NCBI GenBank assembly: GCA_958296135.2
Contig: CATQHZ020000001.1
Coordinates: forward strand, 4,160,001 to 4,224,000
Source: an uncultured Poribacteria bacterium
GTDB lineage: Bacteria > Poribacteria > WGA-4E > WGA-3G
DNA: 64,000 bases
Direction: 5' to 3'
In this document: piece by piece, positions 31,779-39,823 of the stretch
Numbering within the stretch: position 1 is the first letter of the stretch
Layout of the letters: every line of letters starts with the position of its first letter
Translations under genes and position numbers: made by a program
Notes under the pieces: generated by a model
Told to the model about the DNA's origin: nothing
Seen by the model: the letters and a program-made list of their open reading frames with translations, nothing else
Database searches by the model: none

Positions 31779-32519
31779 CTATAAAATCCCAAGCGGCGGC
31801 ATGACGACAATTTCATCTGTCACCATCCCCAACGGCTGGCGGCAGACAGACACCACCGCTTCCGCGACATGCTCCGGTTTCAGCATCTGCTCAAAGTCTG
31901 GATGCACCGAAATTTCATCCCAAAACGAAGTATGCACCGAGCCGGGTAACACAGCCGTAACCCGGATGTTATGCTGACGGCCTTCCTTGGCTAATACCTT
32001 TGTGAACGCCAGCGCGCCCGCCTTCGCGGCGCAATACGCGCTGGACGCGGGGAAAGACTCCCGCGCCGCAATGGAAAGCACGTTGATAATTTGTCCACTG
32101 CCTTGCGCGAACATCGATGGAAGCGCGTGCTTCGCGCAGAGAAAGACACTCTTTAAATTGGAATCAAGGACGCTGTCCCAATCCTCCGGGGCGAAATCCA
32201 CCACAGGACCGAAACGGCCGCTGCCCGCGTTGTTCACCAAAATATCCACGCGCTGATACGTCTCCAGCGTCCGTTGGAAGAGCCGCGCCACAGCGTCTAC
32301 CTGCGTGACATCAGTAGGAACGGCTATCGCCGCAACACCTTCCTGTCGGAACGCCGCAGCGACGTTCTCAACATCGTCAGGGGTGCGCGCGGCGAGAACC
32401 AGCTTCGCGCCTGCCTCAGCGAAAGCGAACGCTGTCGCCTTGCCGATGCCTCGCGATGCACCGGTAATGACTGCAACCTTTCCCGCAAGCGTTTCTACCT
32501 CTATAGCTGGGTATCTCAT
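31779..32519 (-). CDS. Short-chain dehydrogenase/reductase
   Basis: TGASRGIG, LVNNAG, catalytic YCAAK. Confidence 0.92.
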   Translation of the reverse strand: MRYPAIEVETLAGKVAVITGASRGIGKATAFAFAEAGAKLVLAARTPDDVENVAAAFRQEGVAAIAVPTDVTQVDAVARLFQRTLETYQRVDILVNNAGSGRFGPVVDFAPEDWDSVLDSNLKSVFLCAKHALPSMFAQGSGQIINVLSIAARESFPASSAYCAAKAGALAFTKVLAKEGRQHNIRVTAVLPGSVHTSFWDEISVHPDFEQMLKPEHVAEAVVSVCRQPLGMVTDEIVVMPPLGIL

Positions 32520-32554
32520 GAGCGAGTGCCTCCTAGCGCGCCGCTTGTCCTGCG

Positions 32555-33136
32555 CTACGTGCTATTTTGGATGCATTTCAGAAATTCGGAGCGAGTGGAA
32601 TTGTTCTCCCGAAAGATGCCGCGCATGACATTCGTCGTCATCTTCGGTGCCTGCTTCTCAACGCCGCGCGCCATCATGCACAGGTGTTGCCCTTCCATGA
32701 CGACAGCGACACCTTGCGGCTCCAAGGCGGTTTCCAAGGCCTCGGCAATCTCGCGGGTGAGCCGCTCCTGCACCTGCAACCGTCGTGAAAACATATCCAC
32801 GATGCGCGGAATCTTACTCAACCCGATAATCCGTTGCCGCGGAATATAACCGACGTGACACCGCCCCCAAAACGGGAGGATGTGGTGCTCGCAAAGACTG
32901 TAAAACTCGATGTCTTTGACAATCACCATCTCGTCGTAGTCCTCGTTAAATACCGCGTTGTTCAAGATTTTGTCAATGTCTTGATGGTAGCCGCTCGTCA
33001 AAAATTGCATCGCTTTCGCGGCGCGGTGCGGCGTTTTCACTAAGCCTTGGCGGCCCGGGTCTTCACCCAGATTCTCTAGCATCCGCGTGAAGAGCCCTTC
33101 TAATTCAACAGTCTCGTTACGCTGTTTATTTTTCAT
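32555..33136 (-). CDS. folE: GTP cyclohydrolase I
   Basis: [41 protein letters not shown]. Confidence 0.97.
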
Positions 33137-33197
33137 ACCTATAGGCGTAGCATTGGCACACACACCCGCGCTACGCAAGCAAAATGCGTCTCCATCT

Positions 33198-34025
33198 CTA
33201 TTCACCGTAATAGTCAAAATGATTTTTCGGCGTCTCGCGCAAACGGATACGGTGTAAGGACACCGGTGCTACCGCCGGTGCCAGCGCATCCCACAACACC
33301 TTCACGAAGTTCTCCGACGTGGGGTTCAGCGTCTCGAACTCTGGCGTATCCAGATTGAGATGCCTGTGATCAAACCGTGCATAGACTCGGGTTGCCACCG
33401 CTTCGTCCAGCAGATGCAGCCCCGCGACGAGCCCCGTTTTCGCATCGACATCGCCCTTTACGGTGACTTCAAGGACGTAATTGTGGCCATGCCCCGCCGG
33501 ATTGTTGCACTTCCCGAAGATATCGCGGTTTGCCGCGTCGCTAAGGACGTGGCTGTGCAGACGATGCGCAGCACTAAACTCGTAGACTTTGGTTAGGTAA
33601 ACCATCTGTCCTTCTCCATAATAGTCGGCGAATTGCGTTGTCGCCGAATACAGGCGCACCCGATGCAGCAAGCCGCCCGGCAGAGACGAAGCCAGCCGCC
33701 CCCAAATCTCAATCGCGATGTTTTCGTTCGACGGTTGCAGATGCGGGTTGCGTGAGAACACCGGATGCTGAAGGTTCAAATGCCGATGATCATAGTGTGC
33801 AAGCACTTCTGCCTTCAACAATGCGTCTAACGTCACCAAATTGATAACCATCCCGTTGTCCGCATCGAGTTCCCCTTTCAGCATCACCTCAAGCACGTAG
33901 TTGTGGCCGTGGCTATTCGGGTTCGCGGCGGCACCGAAGAGCGCGAAATTCTCCGCGTCGCTCCATTCCGGGATGCGATTGTAGTGCGAGGCTTCAAAAG
34001 CAGTCTGCCGGGTTAAGTAATACAT
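33198..34025 (-). CDS. Tandem-domain 6-pyruvoyltetrahydropterin synthase/QueD-family protein
   Basis: Two T-fold repeats, each with F.A.H, HGHNY.LEV, DHRHLN and P.EN; directly upstream of folE. Confidence 0.88.
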
Positions 34026-34058
34026 ATCTTCAAAGGAATCACGCGCGGGAAAGCCCTC

Positions 34059-34343
34059 CTACCGCGGTAGTGCTATCAATTCGTCTCCAGCCGACTCATA
34101 TTGCACCGACATGAGCCATTCGCCGCTACCGCGCAGCTGCACGTTGCAGCCTTTTAGCCATGCAATCAAGAGTGTCCGGTCGCGCGCTTCCCACTCGCAG
34201 ACCATCCGTCCGGAGAGTGTATCGCAAAGCACTCGGATGTTCTTGACATCCGCGGTCGCCTCTTCACGGAACCGCTTCAGCAATCGCGCGACATCTTGGC
34301 GCGTCATGCAGGCGATGGCATGTGTCGTGATAAATTTCGGCAT
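34059..34343 (-). CDS. Small DUF4242-like protein
   Basis: MPKFI..H N-terminus and GRMVCEWEA motif; sits in a tight operon. Confidence 0.55.
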   Translation of the reverse strand: MPKFITTHAIACMTRQDVARLLKRFREEATADVKNIRVLCDTLSGRMVCEWEARDRTLLIAWLKGCNVQLRGSGEWLMSVQYESAGDELIALPR

Positions 34344-34374: not shown

Positions 34375-35223
34375 TTAGTCGCGGGCGATGGGCGCGCCGA
34401 CAAGATTGCCCCACTCCGTCCAGCTGCCATCGTAGTTGCGCACCTTCTCATAACCGAGCAGATACTTCAGCACAAACCACGTATGCGATGAACGTTCACC
34501 GATGCGGCAGTAAGCGATAGTCTCCTTGTCCGCGTCAACGCCTGCGCCGCCGTAGATTTCCTGCAGTTCGTCGTGAGATTTAAAGGTGCCGTCTTCGGCG
34601 ACAGCGGTTGCCCACGGGATGTTCGCCGCGCCGGGGATATGTCCGCCGCGCTGCGCTGTCTCGTTCATGCCGGGCGGCGCGATGACTTCGCCTGAAAATT
34701 CTGCCGGCGACCGGACATCCACGAGGTGAATCACACCCTGCTCCAACGTCGGCAGGATGTTGTCCTTCGTCGCGCGCACGTTATCGTCAGGAAATTTCGC
34801 CCGATACCCGGTGCTCGGATAAGAGGGAACCGCGGTGACGAGGGCTCTGCCTTCATCTATCCATTTTTGGCGGCCGCCGTTCATCACCTTGAGTAGGCTT
34901 TCGTCATGCCCATAGTAACGGAATTGCCACAACGCGTAAGTCGCGAACCAGTTGTTATTGTCGCCATAAAAGACGACGGTGGTATCGTTGCCGATGCCGC
35001 TGTCGTTGCAGAGTGTCTCAAACTGCTCTTTCGTGAGAATGTCGCGCCGAACCTGGTCGCAGAGCTGCGTCTGCCAGTTGAGCCCGACTGCACCGGCGAT
35101 ATGTCCTTCGGCGTAAGCAGACGTATCGACATCCACTTCAAGCAGGCGGATGCCGGCATCGCCGCCGTGTTGTGCTACCCACTCCGTGCTTACCAAGACA
35201 TCGGGGTTTGCGTAATTTGCCAT
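34375..35223 (-). CDS. Tandem rhodanese sulfurtransferase (CysA/SseA-like)
   Basis: LVSTEWV, GHI.GA, LVDVRSP.EF.G, active site YCRIGERSS, YDGSWTEWG. Confidence 0.95.
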   Translation of the reverse strand: MANYANPDVLVSTEWVAQHGGDAGIRLLEVDVDTSAYAEGHIAGAVGLNWQTQLCDQVRRDILTKEQFETLCNDSGIGNDTTVVFYGDNNNWFATYALWQFRYYGHDESLLKVMNGGRQKWIDEGRALVTAVPSYPSTGYRAKFPDDNVRATKDNILPTLEQGVIHLVDVRSPAEFSGEVIAPPGMNETAQRGGHIPGAANIPWATAVAEDGTFKSHDELQEIYGGAGVDADKETIAYCRIGERSSHTWFVLKYLLGYEKVRNYDGSWTEWGNLVGAPIARD

Positions 35224-35254: not shown

Positions 35255-35283
35255 ATTATACTTTGCTCACAGCAGTTTGTCAA
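35255..35283 (-). promoter_or_regulatory. Consensus sigma70 promoter of the sulfurtransferase-pterin operon
   Basis: Perfect TTGACA-N17-TATAAT, followed by AAGGAG RBS and ATG 35223. Confidence 0.75.
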
Positions 35284-35377: not shown

Positions 35378-36958
35378 TCATAACCTATTCGTCGTCTTCG
35401 GTGCGGTTTTCGGGACGCGCTCCGCATCCTCATCCGCGAGTGCCGCCGCAGGAATATAGTTGCTGTAATCCGATATATTCCCGTGCGTCACGGCGTAAAC
35501 GACAATGTTGATGAGTTGCCGCGCTGCTGCAGGCGCGAATTCGTCTAACACCTTATTCCGGTCTTGATAGTGACCGAAGAAAGGTTTCTGCACCGCGCCA
35601 TCCATCACGTGTATCATCGCCTCGGTGTCTACGAGAACAGCCAGCCGCCCGTCAATGAAAACGCCTTGCAACTGGCTATACGCTCCATGATGGAGAAGGG
35701 TGCGTCCGATCTTCCGCACAGGAAAACGGAGCGGGCCGTTCAATTCATAGAAACTGTCGTAGAGCTCGTGGTCGCGGGGGATAACCGTGAGGTGGTATTC
35801 CGGCAAAATTTGCCGTAAGACACGCCGCGCCGGACGCATTGCGTCCTCCGTATTGCCGTGCGTCGGCATATAGATAAACCCACCGCGATTGATAACGTAT
35901 TCACGGATGCGCTGCGCCTCCCGCTCGGTATACCCTTTGGTAGCACGCGCACTCTGCGTATCCCAGATAGCGTCGCTGAGACCAAGCGTGTTACTCTGAA
36001 GGACCGAACCAGAGACCGGCTCCATGAAGATAATCGGCGATTCAAAGAACGCCGCATCGGTAATTTGAACTGCGTCAACAAGTTGAGTGTGAACGCCGGT
36101 TTGCGCGTTCAACGCCTTGACTAAATAGGGCAGACCTGCCCCAAATCGGAGATGTCCGATACCGCTGCCTCATATATCAAGGTTCGGGTGCAGCGGATCA
36201 TCGAGCCGGACGAGGTTGAGCCGCCCCAGTATCTCCTTGCCACGGCCTTGGATAATAGCCCCCGGTGTGCCCTTCGGGAGCGGCGGCACACTGTTACCGA
36301 GGACAATGTTCTCCGTAACGTCTGCCAAGGCGGCATTCATATTTGCAACGCCAGCCCCTCCGACGAGCGAGTCCAATCCGGAATGGCTTTTCCCGCGGCC
36401 TTGACTAACTCCACCGGCGGAGCCGAAAGCCCCGCGCCCGGTGCCAGCATCCGCACCGCCGCCATCTCCACCACTGAGTGCTGCTGTGAGGGAACTCCCC
36501 TGACTCAAGCCTGCGGAAATCGGCGCATCCGATTCTATCGCCAGGTCTGCCGCCGTTGAGAGCGGCTGTGTCGTGTCTGGCCGAATAGGCGCTGCGCCGG
36601 CAACGTTCACCTGCTCACGCTTGGGGGCTGCCGGCCTGTCGGCTATCACCGGCATCGTAGATACCGATTTCAGAGACGATGTCGCCTCCCGCGCAACGGT
36701 TTCCGAACGACGCGAAGTCGGCTCAGATTCCCGCGCCACTTGCCAATTGACCACGGGCGTAGGCGCAACAAACGGCTCCGGGGCATTCAACTCCCGCAAC
36801 TTCGCCTTCGGCGGCGTGACGGTGAAGAAACTGACATCGATGGTGTCCCTTGGCATCTGATATTTGACAGTGAGCGCAATATACGCTACGGCGACCGCGA
36901 GGCACACGTGCGCCACCAGCGATAGCGTCAATGCCAAATGTATACGACGCGATTTCAT
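35378..36958 (-). CDS. Membrane-anchored DUF4159-like protein with one in-frame TGA (candidate selenoprotein, 526 aa, U263)
   Basis: Track ORFs 36170-36973 and 35378-36112 share a frame, with TGA 36172-36170 the only stop between them (..NLDI*GSGIGHLRFGAGLPYLVKALNAQTG..). The C-terminus carries DUF4159-like motifs (REYV..GGFIY, IP.DHELY.SFY, L.G.FIDGRLAV, NIVVYA). GGAGG RBS before ATG 36958. Confidence 0.7.
36126..36160 (-). promoter_or_regulatory. Candidate bacterial SECIS element
   Basis: Two hairpins follow the TGA: AUCGGA-CAUC-UCCGAU, then UGGGGCA-GGUC-UGCCCUA. The apical GCAGGUCUGC matches the top of the E. coli fdhF SECIS. Confidence 0.6.
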
Positions 36959-37015
36959 GATACCTACCTCCATTTCTTATGAAAGGTTAGAACATTACAA
37001 TCTTTATTATCTTAT

Positions 37016-37044
37016 ATCTTACCTGTTTTTCACATATTTGTCAA
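37016..37044 (-). promoter_or_regulatory. Sigma70-type promoter for the TGA-containing gene
   Basis: TTGACA-N17-TAAGAT. Confidence 0.55.
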
Positions 37045-37519: not shown

Positions 37520-39823
37520 GTGACGAATAAACAGATTCTCGCCGCCATTTTGGCACTGCTGCTAACCGCCACCCTCTTTGTGACAACCGCCACCGCCCAA
37601 CTCGAGGCGGCGGTACCGGGTACCGACGCAGCAGTCGTTATCCCCGATGCGGCCTTGGCAGCAGCGATCCGTGAGGCACTCAGCCTGCCTGCCGAGCACT
37701 CCCTCACCGCACAAGACATGTTCGCATTAAGGACACTTGACGCAACCAATCGCGGGATAACAGCCCTCACCGGCTTGGAAGCCGCAACGAATCTTATAAC
37801 TTTGAACCTTGCTGGGAACACCGGTGTCTCGGATGTGTTGCCGCTTGCCAGTCTCACACAATTGGAGGAACTGTGGCTCGACAACACCGGTGTCTCGGAT
37901 GTGTTGCCGCTCGCAGGCCTCACGCAATTGGAGGAACTGTGGCTCGCCAACACTAGTGTCTCGGATGTGTCGCCGCTCGCCAGTCTCACACAATTGGAGG
38001 TGCTGTATCTCCACGGCACTGGTGTCTCGGATGTGTCGCCGCTCGCCAGTCTCACACAATTGGAGGTGCTGTATCTCTGGGGCACCGGTGTCTTGGATGT
38101 GTCGCCGCTCGCAGGCCTCACACAATTGGAGGAACTGTCTCTTGACAACACCGGTGTCTTGGATGTGTCGCCGCTCGCCAGTCTCACACAATTGGAGGAA
38201 CTGTGGCTCGGCGGCATCGGTGTCTTGGATGTATCGCCGCTTGCCAGTCTCACACAATTGGAGAAACTGTATCTCCACGGCACTGGTGTCTTGGATGTGT
38301 CGCCGCTTGCCAGTCTCACACAATTGGAGGAACTGTCTCTTGACAACACCGGTGTCTTGGATGTATCGCCGCTTGCCAGTCTCACACAATTGACGAGGCT
38401 GTGGCTCAACGGCACTGGTGTCTCGGATGTATCGCCGCTTGCCAGTCTCACACAATTGACAGGGCTGTATCTCTGGGACACTAGTGTCTTGGATGTATCG
38501 CCGCTCGCACGCCTCATACGATTGGAGGAACTGTCTCTCGGCGACACCGGTGTCTTAGATGTGTCGCCGCTCGCAGGCCTCACACAATTGACGGGGCTGT
38601 GGCTCAACGGCTGTCCGCTGAGCGATGCCTCCCTCCACACCCATATTCCCGCCCTGCAGGCGAAAGGGATATACGTGGCATTTGATGCCCCTACCGAGTT
38701 GTCGCCTGTCGTCCACGTCGGAACGGATGCACTGCCACCAATGTATTGGATAAACACAACGTATCGCAAGTTGTATCGGCTCACCGGGGATGCCGTGAAA
38801 TACCTTAATCCGTATGTTCAGAACGCCACCAGCATCGTCGTGGATGTGGCAGGAAATAAGCTCTACTGGACAGAGCAGACCGGGGAGAGAAGCGGCAGAA
38901 TTCTTCGCTCAAACTTCAACAGTTTCACCAGTGAATTGGTAAGGGACTTAACCAGCGTGCCGCGCGACTTGGCGATTGACTCGGCGGGCGGCACACTCTA
39001 CTTAACGAACTCCTGGGGTAAGATTCAACGTCTCAATGTCGACGGTTCAGGCTTCCAGCCCAATCTCATCACCGGCTTGGAGTCGCCACAGCACCTAGCC
39101 CTGGATGTGGCGGGCGGCAAGGTTTATTGGACAGCACCGGGGAGCATCTGGCGTGCGACTCTCACCGGCAAAAACAGAGAAAAACTCATCGCAGATTTAG
39201 GTGCTATAGGCAGCATCGCGGTGGCAGGATCCAAGATTTATTGGACAGAGGAGAACAAAAATGACACAAAGAGCGGGAAAGTCCGGCGCGCCGCCCTAGA
39301 CGGTTCCAATGTCCAGACGCTCGCCACGTTGCTGAGCGTTCCGAGTGGGATTGCGGTGGATGCAGTGGGCCGTAAACTCTATTGGACAAATTCCAAGGGA
39401 CGCATCCAACGGGCGAACCTTGCGGGCAACAATATCCAGAATCTGGTGACGGGACTTGGCATGCCTGCCGAGCTTGCGTTGGGACGCACCGGCGGACGTG
39501 CTGCACCCACAGTGCCTGCAATACTTCCAGAAAAAACTGTCCTGCTCCCAAACTATCCAAATCCGTTCAATCCGGAGACGTGGCTCCCCTATCTGTTGTC
39601 AAAACCAGACGAAGTCACTGTGACGATTTACGCGGCGAACGGCGCAGTAGTGCGCACCTTGGCCCTCGGACATCAGCACGCTGGCAGTTACGCAAGCCGA
39701 AGCCGTGCAGCCTATTGGGATGGCCGGAACGCGCTAGGTGAGCGCGTTGCTAGCGGTGTCTACTTCTATACGCTCACCGCTGGCGAATTCCACGCAACGC
39801 GGAAGATGCTCATCCTGAAGTGA
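37520..39823 (+). CDS. Secreted internalin-like LRR + LDL-receptor class B (YWTD) propeller + C-terminal FlgD-like domain protein
   Basis: Signal peptide; IPD..L..AIR cap; 22-aa LRRs; KLYWTE/KVYWT/KIYWTE/KLYWTN repeats; LLPNYPNPFNPETW...YWDGRN..GE.VASGVYFY tail. Confidence 0.9.
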   Translation: MTNKQILAAILALLLTATLFVTTATAQLEAAVPGTDAAVVIPDAALAAAIREALSLPAEHSLTAQDMFALRTLDATNRGITALTGLEAATNLITLNLAGNTGVSDVLPLASLTQLEELWLDNTGVSDVLPLAGLTQLEELWLANTSVSDVSPLASLTQLEVLYLHGTGVSDVSPLASLTQLEVLYLWGTGVLDVSPLAGLTQLEELSLDNTGVLDVSPLASLTQLEELWLGGIGVLDVSPLASLTQLEKLYLHGTGVLDVSPLASLTQLEELSLDNTGVLDVSPLASLTQLTRLWLNGTGVSDVSPLASLTQLTGLYLWDTSVLDVSPLARLIRLEELSLGDTGVLDVSPLAGLTQLTGLWLNGCPLSDASLHTHIPALQAKGIYVAFDAPTELSPVVHVGTDALPPMYWINTTYRKLYRLTGDAVKYLNPYVQNATSIVVDVAGNKLYWTEQTGERSGRILRSNFNSFTSELVRDLTSVPRDLAIDSAGGTLYLTNSWGKIQRLNVDGSGFQPNLITGLESPQHLALDVAGGKVYWTAPGSIWRATLTGKNREKLIADLGAIGSIAVAGSKIYWTEENKNDTKSGKVRRAALDGSNVQTLATLLSVPSGIAVDAVGRKLYWTNSKGRIQRANLAGNNIQNLVTGLGMPAELALGRTGGRAAPTVPAILPEKTVLLPNYPNPFNPETWLPYLLSKPDEVTVTIYAANGAVVRTLALGHQHAGSYASRSRAAYWDGRNALGERVASGVYFYTLTAGEFHATRKMLILK
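37823..38614 (+). repeat. 12 x 66-nt coding tandem repeat (LRR units)
   Basis: Near-identical GGTGTCT(C/T)GGATGT..CCGCT.GC...CTCACACAATTG segments alternate with variable segments. Confidence 0.92.

Follow-up and report, generated by a model that had tools for sequence, protein, structure and literature searches.

Evidence for an uncatalogued family of membrane-anchored DUF4159-type selenoproteins in Poribacteria

Introduction

Known bacterial selenoprotein genes have in common a UGA codon that aligns with cysteine, an intragenic hairpin just 3' of it, and the presence of selA, selB, selC and selD. In the part of the literature covered here, BSepDB divides the bacterial selenoproteome into 111 families and subfamilies (PMC13326102), and the bacterial SECIS (bSECIS) consensus is given as a hairpin with a loop of 3-9 nt, a stem of 4-16 bp and a G within the first two nucleotides of the loop, placed 16-37 nt from the UGA and having a minimum free energy (MFE) at or below -7.5 kcal/mol (PMC13188914). 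A table of the latter review also lists a glutamine amidotransferase (GATase) selenoprotein with the motif GxUxG (PMC13188914, in part). In E. coli fdhF, which we checked on NC_000913.3, codon 140 is TGA and is followed by the 10-mer GCAGGTCTGC.

Poribacteria are sponge symbionts, and their genome bins are described as enriched in selA and selB in the portion of the source covered (PMC5649159). The DUF4159-type domain, a widespread domain with no known function, has been solved structurally in Hoch_4089 of Haliangium ochraceum (4i66). We found no DUF4159 protein listed as a selenoprotein in the parts of the literature covered, nor did we find the family described here among catalogued selenoproteins, where Table S2 of BSepDB or Table S2 of deep-Sep might list it under another name.

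Results

One reading frame interrupted by a single TGA

The window, that is the whole stretch of 64,000 nucleotides of Poribacteria DNA that was analysed and to which all positions refer, carries on its minus strand a reading frame that begins with ATG at 36958-36956, extends for 526 codons to 35381 and stops on a TGA at 35380-35378. Its sole in-frame interruption is the TGA at 36172-36170 (minus strand), residue 263 in the context HPNLDI-U-GSGIGH, which we read as selenocysteine (Sec), U263; the complete selenoprotein gene would occupy 35378..36958 of the minus strand with this one internal Sec-UGA. Under translation table 11 the locus yields two ORFs (36170..36973 and 35378..36112) that share one frame, as the original prediction had recognized. 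That prediction also gave the gene a promoter and ribosome-binding site of its own. We can read a GGAGG from the sequence 8 nt 5' of the ATG (36967..36971, minus strand), so the second of these elements is present; the first is a consensus match only, the promoter-like TTGACA-17-TAAGAT upstream of the gene (37016..37044, minus strand), and is weak when taken alone, the scanned region having 3 such sites where shuffles gave 1.4 +/- 1.3. A tRNA scan of the window found none. No RNA data set was listed for the gene: four sequencing runs contain the stretch, all from a single study that may represent the source sample, stored as contigs and not recorded as RNA. A search of the window with Rfam at gathering thresholds gave 0 matches, which is uninformative because, to our knowledge, Rfam holds no bacterial SECIS model.

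Conservation of the UGA and its exchange with cysteine

We found exactly one TGA in all 17 full-length matches recovered from 41 genomes, at identities of 48-100%, and in the 17 aligned orthologues, where column identity was checked, it occupies one and the same alignment column. Extension to 176 species-level genomes of the phylum gave 102 rows of relatives, 85 of them by our count with exactly one TGA and many of these from single-contig assemblies, so that the codon is not peculiar to the present assembly, as the original prediction had feared it might be. Fifteen rows of the phylum-wide search cross the Sec site without a stop. The codon at the Sec motif of the fetched loci was TGA in 111 cases, TGT in 14 and TGC in 2, and cysteine occupies the site in the stop-free forms examined as DNA or protein, among them P0002, P0003, P0005, P0006, P0009, P0012, P0017, P0023 and P0039; the homologues thus show Cys in place of the Trp or Arg that the original prediction had named as signs of a nonsense mutation.

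All 16 comparisons showed higher identity downstream of the TGA than upstream, and orthologues share 56-93% of their residues in the C-terminal domain versus 35-78% in the part before the TGA. These alignments indicate that protein-level selection is running on past the TGA. General reassignment of UGA is not the explanation, because this gene and some of its orthologues themselves terminate on TGA. In the tree the Cys forms nest within the Sec forms twice, and this nesting suggests the direction Sec to Cys, with replacement following duplication and fusion.

Hairpins downstream of the UGA

Two hairpins follow the UGA on the minus strand, at exactly the positions and with exactly the sequences originally claimed. 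Hairpin 1 (36145..36160, AUCGGA-CAUC-UCCGAU) starts 9 nt past the UGA and has no G in its loop; one base separates it from hairpin 2 (36126..36143, UGGGGCA-GGUC-UGCCCUA), the probable SelB-binding SECIS apex. The GGUC loop of hairpin 2, at 36136-36133, lies 33 nt past the UGA and caps a stem of 6-7 bp with an MFE of -10.4 or -7.7 kcal/mol. Its 4-nt loop, the G at the first loop position, the stem length, the distance and the MFE all lie within the bSECIS consensus.

The apex of hairpin 2 is identical to that of E. coli fdhF over the 10-mer GCAGGUCUGC, which places the GGUC loop on a GCA/UGC stem top, whereas the bulged U below the apex in fdhF is absent here; both the identity and the missing U had been correctly noted in the original prediction and hold on the E. 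coli sequence. The two elements differ further in spacing, the GGUC loop being 18 nt from the UGA in E. coli fdhF and 33 nt from it here, with the spacer filled by the second, G-less hairpin, and the encoded protein has no relationship to formate dehydrogenase. Looping out of hairpin 1 is not needed to correct the spacing, since 33 nt is already within the 16-37 nt range. In a crude scan of the whole 5.19 Mb genome, a site had to have a TGA flanked on each side by 80 or more open codons and, 16-37 nt past it, a 5-bp hairpin closed by a GG[U/G]N loop; 6 places qualified, this gene among them. The occurrence of an fdhF-like hairpin after the TGA is more than chance. In the same genome, another gene with a conserved TGA likewise carries a hairpin with a GGUC loop, 24 nt past the codon.

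Across all 72 distinct Sec genes the core of hairpin 2 (GGGGCA-GGUC-UGYCCU) is identical, a single G-C to G-U change excepted. Of 12 distinct Cys genes, 9 deviate from it (loop GGUU in six, GGAC in one, stem changes in two) and the other 3 keep it exactly. The codons for R271, G273, A274, G275 and L276, which underlie hairpin 2, are identical in 17 of 17 orthologues. At invariant residues, codon identity is 0.80 across codons 264-282 (n=11) as against 0.48 elsewhere (n=135), a contrast with a Mann-Whitney p of 1.4e-4 that is indicative only, the sequences being kin. The codon usage and the invariant core show constraint at the level of the RNA around the hairpins; some of the nucleotide conservation in hairpin 2 might be due to strong amino-acid constraint on RFGAGL combined with codon preference. 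Hairpin 1 (MFE -6.2 kcal/mol), with 97.3% of cells paired and three invariant pairs, is kept in Cys forms as well, and is a candidate spacer or auxiliary element. In a covariation test on these near-invariant hairpins the observed score was matched by 78 of 500 shuffles and is thus not significant; the only pair varying on both sides is located in a proposed outer stem and not in hairpin 1 or 2. That outer stem, columns 6-11 with 58-63, was rejected, having 85% of cells paired and 18-19 unpaired sequences at two positions.

Selenocysteine machinery

The genome contains SelA (518 bits), SelD (351 bits), a tRNA-Sec gene (selC, 78 bits) and selB, which adjoins the tRNA-Sec gene; selD itself has an in-frame TGA. 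The original prediction would have been undone by the lack of selABC, and each of these genes, together with selD, was found. Co-occurrence of the gene with the machinery across the phylum is uninformative, because the SelB wing-3 domain is detected in 166 of 176 genomes. Genome G123, which is 94% complete and has the TGA gene, gave no SelB wing-3 match.

Domain architecture

A single hydrophobic segment at about residues 6-31 (36866..36943, minus strand), following the sequence MKSRR, is the predicted N-terminal anchor, in line with the membrane-anchored product originally proposed; Kyte-Doolittle 19-residue windows exceed 1.6 at window starts 5-15 only. By the positive-inside rule the protein is probably oriented with its N-terminus in and its C-terminus out, which would place the domain in the periplasm. 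A linker of roughly 190 residues rich in Pro, Ala and Gly separates the anchor from the conserved C-terminal domain (residues 215-526; 35381..36316, minus strand), for which an alpha/beta fold of DUF4159 type is modelled. The assignment to DUF4159 made in the original prediction is borne out by a Pfam match (PF13709) that scores 70.5 bits (gathering cut-off 25.9) and covers residues 343-489 (35492..35932, minus strand) and positions 65-201 of the 202-position profile, and by the best Foldseek match of the structural model, 4i66 (E 7e-10, probability 1.00, TM 0.71 normalised to target), together with a profile match at E 3e-5. The first 64 profile positions have no match in this protein. NCBIfam gave just sub-threshold TonB matches on the Pro-rich linker and matched no selenoprotein model, and an ESM Atlas search with a natural Cys homologue returned DUF4159 clusters only.

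The AlphaFold2 model has a pTM of 0.77 and a mean pLDDT of 68.9. It places the Sec loop after the first long strand of the fold, a placement that is uncertain as the loop itself has a pLDDT <50. The edge after the first strand is the usual ligand-binding side of alpha/beta folds. The loop is Gly-rich (D-[IF]-U-G-x-G-[IV]-G-x-[LF]-R-F-G-A-G), and Sec is the only chalcogen residue outside the membrane. Poribacteria also have many canonical DUF4159 paralogues of the same anchor-linker-domain layout, in which the first strand is followed by SD-WWAD, whereas the loop of the present family is 10 residues longer and holds Sec or Cys. The DW motif that the original prediction expected near the site does exist, in the form of this SD-WWAD, in the canonical paralogues; those proteins are without the Sec loop.

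Sigma-factor fusions and gene neighbourhood

Paralogues of about 740 aa fused to sigma factors make up 29 of 36 matches, to which locus L043 is to be added. They consist of Sigma70_r2, in most cases Sigma70_r4_2, one membrane helix and the same domain with Cys, and the one from genome G069 carries the TGA. Compared with ECF sigma factors that have a C-terminal extension, the protein of the window has no sigma domain (Sigma70 region 2 and region 4 were absent in a Pfam search) and MKSRR alone precedes its helix. The sections of the ECF literature covered name no DUF4159-type extension among the C-terminal extensions. Family f1, the lineage of the window, has no sigma-fused paralogue and one match per genome, except for G173 with a second, partial TGA-bearing copy. 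In family f3 the gene immediately downstream of the sigma fusion encodes a stand-alone Sec protein.

The gene order gene-rhodanese-orf94-PTPS-GCH1 is found in 37 of the 40 listed f1 loci and not in f3. The rhodanese neighbour, at a gap that varies from 250 to 580 nt, has a perfect consensus promoter of its own. We therefore abandoned the link to selenium that the original prediction drew from this neighbour, and rejected the rhodanese as a clue to function, given synteny confined to f1, the separate promoter and the variable gap.

Discussion

That the locus is one intact gene whose UGA stands for selenocysteine is strongly supported by the comparisons of sequences. From the conserved TGA, the Sec/Cys pair, the constraint on the RNA and the machinery in the genome we infer that a ribosome reaching UGA263 would meet a hairpin (GGGGCA-GGUC-UGCCCU) 33 nt downstream that recruits SelB with Sec-tRNA(Sec), that selenocysteine would be inserted, and that translation would continue to the real stop. 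A single N-terminal helix would hold the product in the inner membrane, with the DUF4159-type domain facing the periplasm. Sec would form the reactive centre of an envelope site that is redox-active or binds a ligand or metal, a role suggested by the architecture of the paralogues and by the position in the fold. Taken as a whole, an intact selenoprotein gene for a membrane-anchored DUF4159-type domain with Sec as its reactive centre is in our view highly probable, and it would add a well supported, uncatalogued membrane-anchored family to the bacterial selenoproteome.

We give almost no credence to a pseudogene created by a nonsense mutation or by a sequencing error in this assembly: apart from the stop itself nothing speaks for it, the genes bearing the TGA have exactly one stop each and zero frameshifts, and the recurrence of the TGA across the phylum, together with the better conservation of the downstream half, already refutes this reading. 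A true stop between two genes, the upstream one for an anchored linker protein of 262 residues and the other for a separately initiated cytoplasmic DUF4159 protein, accords with the two table 11 ORFs, with public gene calls that split the locus and with a library of 1.84 billion proteins, in which at least 11 clusters of N-terminal fragments end right before the TGA and others begin just after it. We consider it extremely unlikely all the same, since no start codon is available before TTG at 36112, and the 19 codons that separate it from the TGA are conserved better than any other stretch of the protein; every orthologue keeps them in frame with the preceding part, and in all Cys homologues the two are contiguous. 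The called starts of the fragments moreover vary among clusters, a separate C-terminal product would lack the anchor used by all stop-free homologues, and it would take coincidence to explain both the SECIS-like hairpin and the alignment of Cys with the TGA. Stem-loops downstream of stop codons can stimulate read-through, and the UGA might accordingly be read at low efficiency by a near-cognate Trp or Cys tRNA while the hairpins merely slow the ribosome. This too is very unlikely, for the stop-free relatives always align Cys, which is the signature of Sec, the GGUC loop is the SelB-binding apex of fdhF in a genome with complete Sec machinery, and it is exactly this loop that drifts when TGA gives way to TGT.

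Granting that U263 is selenocysteine, its function may be considered separately. In nearly all selenoproteins Sec is found at the reactive centre, which makes the loop that follows the first strand the likely functional site of the DUF4159-type domain and gives a handle on this domain. Sec could be the catalytic nucleophile of a hydrolase that resembles class I glutamine amidotransferases and works on a substrate in the envelope, by analogy with the GxUxG selenoprotein related to CTP synthase. Weak Foldseek matches to GATase1 and ThuA-like proteins (E 0.009-0.3, and 0.07-0.3 for class I glutamine amidotransferases) lean that way, as do the flavodoxin-like/GATase1 class shared by the weaker fold neighbours of the best match and the precedent of GxUxG itself, to be set beside the local I-U-G-S-G. 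We regard the hydrolase as unlikely. The GATase1 nucleophile elbow sits after the fourth strand, whereas the Sec loop follows the first in the model; canonical DUF4159 proteins have no Cys at the site at all; a Cys-His-Glu triad could not be assigned; and the fold matches beyond 4i66 are non-significant. The GxUxG protein is, in addition, cytoplasmic, with another motif and another position of Sec in the fold, and its NCBIfam model is unmatched here.

Returning to Sec as the reactive centre of an envelope site, the DUF4159-type domain may be an envelope sensor, because in close paralogues a Cys version of this domain is the extracytoplasmic extension of an ECF sigma factor that spans the membrane, a fusion that suggests a role in envelope signalling. 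Carried further, this analogy would give transmembrane signalling within one polypeptide, the Sec/Cys loop sensing and the domain serving as the periplasmic sensor of a tethered ECF sigma factor, with the stand-alone Sec proteins of f3 as redox partners, for example by a selenylsulfide that joins their loop to the homologous one of the fusion. We put this forward as a rather doubtful proposal. If true, the sigma-fused protein of G069 would be the first selenocysteine-containing sigma factor, and selenium chemistry would here serve the perception of envelope signals and not catalysis.

The fragment clusters also have a practical consequence. As annotation splits these genes at the TGA, proteome and pangenome analyses of Poribacteria miscount them.

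Gene structure and conservation of the in-frame TGA

The DUF4159-type gene is a real feature that very probably represents a new selenoprotein family using the ordinary bacterial selenocysteine (Sec) mechanism. It runs on the minus strand of the window (G000:C1:4160001-4224000) from the ATG at 36958 to a terminal TGA at 35380-35378, its sole interruption being the TGA at 36172-36170; read-through would give a 526-residue product in which U263 is flanked as HPNLDI-U-GSGIGHLRFGAGL. On the same strand a promoter-like TTGACA-17-TAAGAT (37044-37016) lies upstream, GGAGG is found 8 nt 5' of the ATG, a perfect 6-bp hairpin (hairpin 1, 36160-36145) begins 9 bases 3' of the in-frame TGA, and one base past it stands a second hairpin of 6-7 bp with a GGUC loop (hairpin 2, 36143-36126). 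The frame, TGA, hairpins, promoter and ribosome-binding site of the original prediction are thus all present in the sequence.

That prediction had asked whether the TGA is peculiar to this assembly or kept in homologues, and whether it aligns to Cys. A search of 41 related genomes with the read-through protein yielded 17 full-length matches, at 48-100% identity and spread over five genera in two families; each of the 17 has a single TGA and is otherwise free of stops, and an alignment of 17 Sec genes places it in one column. Extending the search to the 176 available genomes of the phylum, at a cut-off of E<=1e-80, gave matches in 78 of them: 54 of 111 in f1, the family of the window's lineage, plus the window's own genome, 23 of 29 in a second family, f3, and none of 35 in the nine other families. 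Within the genomes searched, the selenoprotein family is confined to these two families of Poribacteria. Among the 102 rows listed by this search, 85 carried one TGA, 15 spanned the site stop-free and two were fragments that fell short of it. A motif scan of 123 fetched loci read 111 TGA, 14 TGT and 2 TGC at the site; these loci overlap between sources, and the distinct 123-nt segments comprise 72 TGA and 12 Cys forms.

Every stop-free relative that could be read has Cys in the TGA column. One group of Cys forms stands alone (about 530-545 aa, e.g. D-I-C-G-N-G), with a single divergent member having a second Cys ten residues further on. A second group, of about 740 aa, carries Sigma70_r2 (in most cases together with Sigma70_r4_2) and then a membrane helix ahead of this domain (V-C-G-S-G). 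The third and more distant group, the canonical DUF4159 paralogues found in these genomes (about 493 aa, at 30-36% identity), is without the 10-residue segment and has SD-WWAD in its place. Other DUF4159 subfamilies (protein clusters P0046, P0048, P0049, P0060 and P0069) place a conserved Cys a little ahead of that position in the loop (V-D-C-S), and several are likewise fused to ECF sigma domains; across the DUF4159 domain family, Cys seems to recur in the loop that follows the first strand.

The most conserved stretch of the aligned protein is encoded by the 19 codons that separate the TGA from the earliest potential restart codon. In all 16 orthologues compared, the part downstream of the TGA is closer to the window's protein than the upstream part (e.g. 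92 vs 78% identity, 56 vs 41%). To judge from these comparisons, translation very probably runs on beyond the in-frame TGA. The codon is not reassigned, since TGA also serves as the terminator of the selenoprotein gene and of several orthologues.

The family is systematically mis-called in public protein collections. In a library of 1.84 billion proteins only three full-length clusters span the site, all with Cys, whereas in at least 11 fragment clusters the last residue is the one encoded just upstream of the TGA. Fragments ending there include P0068, P0084, P0094-P0097, P0108, P0109 and P0134, with endings such as HPNLDI, HPNADI, HPSADI, HPSLYG, HPDAVI and HPSEAI; C-terminal fragments with arbitrary starts also occur in public collections.

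The candidate SECIS

Mean pairwise codon identity at invariant residues of the 17 Sec orthologues was 0.80 for codons 264-282 (n=11) against 0.48 elsewhere (n=135; Mann-Whitney p 1.4e-4, which is only indicative as the sequences are related), and the codons of R271, G273, A274, G275 and L276 were identical in all 17. The hairpin 2 core, GGGGCA-GGTC-TG[C/T]CCT, was found in 72/72 distinct Sec sequences, the sole variation being G-C to G-U. It was kept in only three of 12 distinct Cys sequences; the other nine deviated by a GGTT loop (six), a GGAC loop (one) or stem changes (two). The constraint on hairpin 2 therefore relaxes where TGA becomes TGY, as a SECIS predicts.

The bacterial SECIS consensus in the Fig. 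[quoted passage not shown] Its apex 10-mer is, as had been predicted, that of E. coli fdhF (NC_000913.3), and the bulged U of fdhF is indeed missing; the fdhF loop, however, lies 18 nt after the TGA rather than 33. Hairpin 1, whose loop is without G and which is retained in Cys genes too, may be a spacer or an auxiliary element. Base-pair covariation was not demonstrable for either hairpin in the alignment of relatives since the helices hardly vary. A candidate outer stem around the hairpins was unsupported in the covariation test.

Sec machinery and a second TGA gene

The search for Sec machinery called for by the original prediction recovered every component in the window's genome, G000: SelA (518 bits), SelB as a 653-codon frame, tRNA-Sec (78 bits, gathering score 47) and SelD (351 bits). 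The tRNA-Sec gene (loci L004/L042, G000:C1:2394175-2394450, minus strand) directly adjoins the 3' end of selB. The selD gene (G000:C1:2864299-2865270, plus strand) has its own in-frame TGA (VKCAG-U-ASKL), with a GGCUCC-GGG-GGAGCU hairpin (GGG loop) 17 nt 3' of it, and corresponds to the already known Sec form of selenophosphate synthetase. Co-occurrence of the TGA gene with the machinery is uninformative, because SelB is general in the phylum (wing-3 domain in 166/176 genomes); in one genome, G123 (94% complete), the TGA gene was present and a SelB match was not found. In the best-supported reading, which we consider highly probable, the in-frame UGA would be decoded by SelB-dependent insertion of Sec via a SECIS inside the coding region.

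Outside the window, a 509-codon frame at G000:C1:1121327-1122853 (plus strand) contains one TGA (DDES-C-U-ANG) and, 24 nt 3' of it, a GGGCG-GGUC-CGCUC hairpin. It had no match in Pfam or NCBIfam. Matches occurred in 24 of 31 related genomes, with as many as 18 in a single genome, and almost all rows spanning the site had one TGA; this is a much-amplified second candidate selenoprotein family.

Protein architecture, function and origin

A single hydrophobic segment at about residues 6-31 follows MKSRR, and by the positive-inside rule the remainder of the selenoprotein should lie on the periplasmic side. The predicted topology agrees with that of the sigma-fused paralogues, in which the helix separates this domain from the sigma domains, whose place has to be the cytoplasm. 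Residues of about 35-214 are Pro/Ala/Gly-rich, poorly conserved and gave only sub-threshold TonB matches in NCBIfam; residues 215-526 form the conserved domain, which matched Pfam DUF4159 at 70.5 bits (profile positions 65-201). In an AlphaFold2 model of this domain (pTM 0.77, mean pLDDT 68.9) the Sec loop, modelled at pLDDT below 50, connects the first long strand to the first helix. Membrane-helix Cys aside, 16 of 17 Sec proteins have no Cys-like residue other than Sec, and the 17th has one extra Cys near its N-terminus. The chain offers no resolving Cys.

Against other chemistries, we tentatively favour a redox-active or ligand/metal-binding sensor site, a possibility suggested by the predicted extracytoplasmic setting of a single exposed Sec, in a Gly-rich loop on that edge of an alpha/beta fold which binds ligands, and by use of the same domain as an extracytoplasmic extension of ECF sigma factors. 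The best match among solved structures was 4i66 (Hoch_4089; E 7e-10); the remaining matches were GATase1/ThuA-like and weak (E 0.009-0.3), and a GATase-like hydrolase role is improbable. The evidence for the selenoprotein itself is solid and its surprise for a specialist moderate; the possible tie to ECF-type signalling holds more interest.

In a tree rooted on canonical DUF4159 paralogues (support values 0.78-0.99), two TGC forms and ten sigma-fused TGT forms were nested within the Sec forms, the TGT clade being sister to a sigma-fused gene still with TGA. This is suggestive of Sec being ancestral in the subfamily and Cys derived twice. The sigma-fused TGA copy, in which an in-frame TGA replaces Cys, was found in one genome only (G069:C50:191500-196409, locus L153, also fetched as L140); its frame is open from locus position 1939, in the order sigma region (MPTDRNLIHQ...), helix, domain. 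It would be a candidate sigma factor fusion with selenocysteine, its rivals being paralogue recombination or an assembly chimera.

In the literature searched we found no paper linking DUF4159 with selenoproteins, and none on DUF4159 outside the Pfam database paper. The passages compared from the family table in PMC13188914, a 2026 review, contain neither PF13709 nor 'sigma', 'transmembrane' or 'periplasm', and the protein had no match in NCBIfam release 20, which includes the selenoprotein models that the table cites. To judge from the passages compared, the nine new families of deep-Sep (PMC12013277) differ from this one.

Gene neighbourhood

Downstream of the selenoprotein gene, f1 genomes carry a two-domain rhodanese, a 94-codon ORF, PTPS and GTP cyclohydrolase I; of the 40 f1 loci listed, 37 keep this order. 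The rhodanese (34375-35223, minus strand) is 86-97% identical across f1, more conserved than the selenoprotein, and has, as originally noted, its own promoter, a perfect TTGACA-17-TATAAT consensus (35255-35283, minus strand). Considered as a functional link, this neighbour is better read as synteny among close relatives, given the variable gap (250-580 nt) and its own promoter consensus. Further along the minus strand, 31779-34343 encodes the 94-codon ORF without Pfam match, 6-pyruvoyl-tetrahydropterin synthase, GTP cyclohydrolase I and a short-chain dehydrogenase, which looks like a pterin or queuosine-precursor set syntenic in f1. Divergently, 37520-39823 (plus strand) encodes a 767-residue protein with leucine-rich repeats, LDL-receptor class B/DUF5050 beta-propeller repeats and an FlgD Ig-like domain, which we take to be a eukaryote-like repeat protein of a kind common in sponge symbionts. 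The f3 Sec genes occur in clusters with, in this order, a PD40 beta-propeller protein, a sigma-fused Cys paralogue, a stand-alone Sec gene and a CarboxypepD_reg/PD40 protein, with additional Sec copies nearby.
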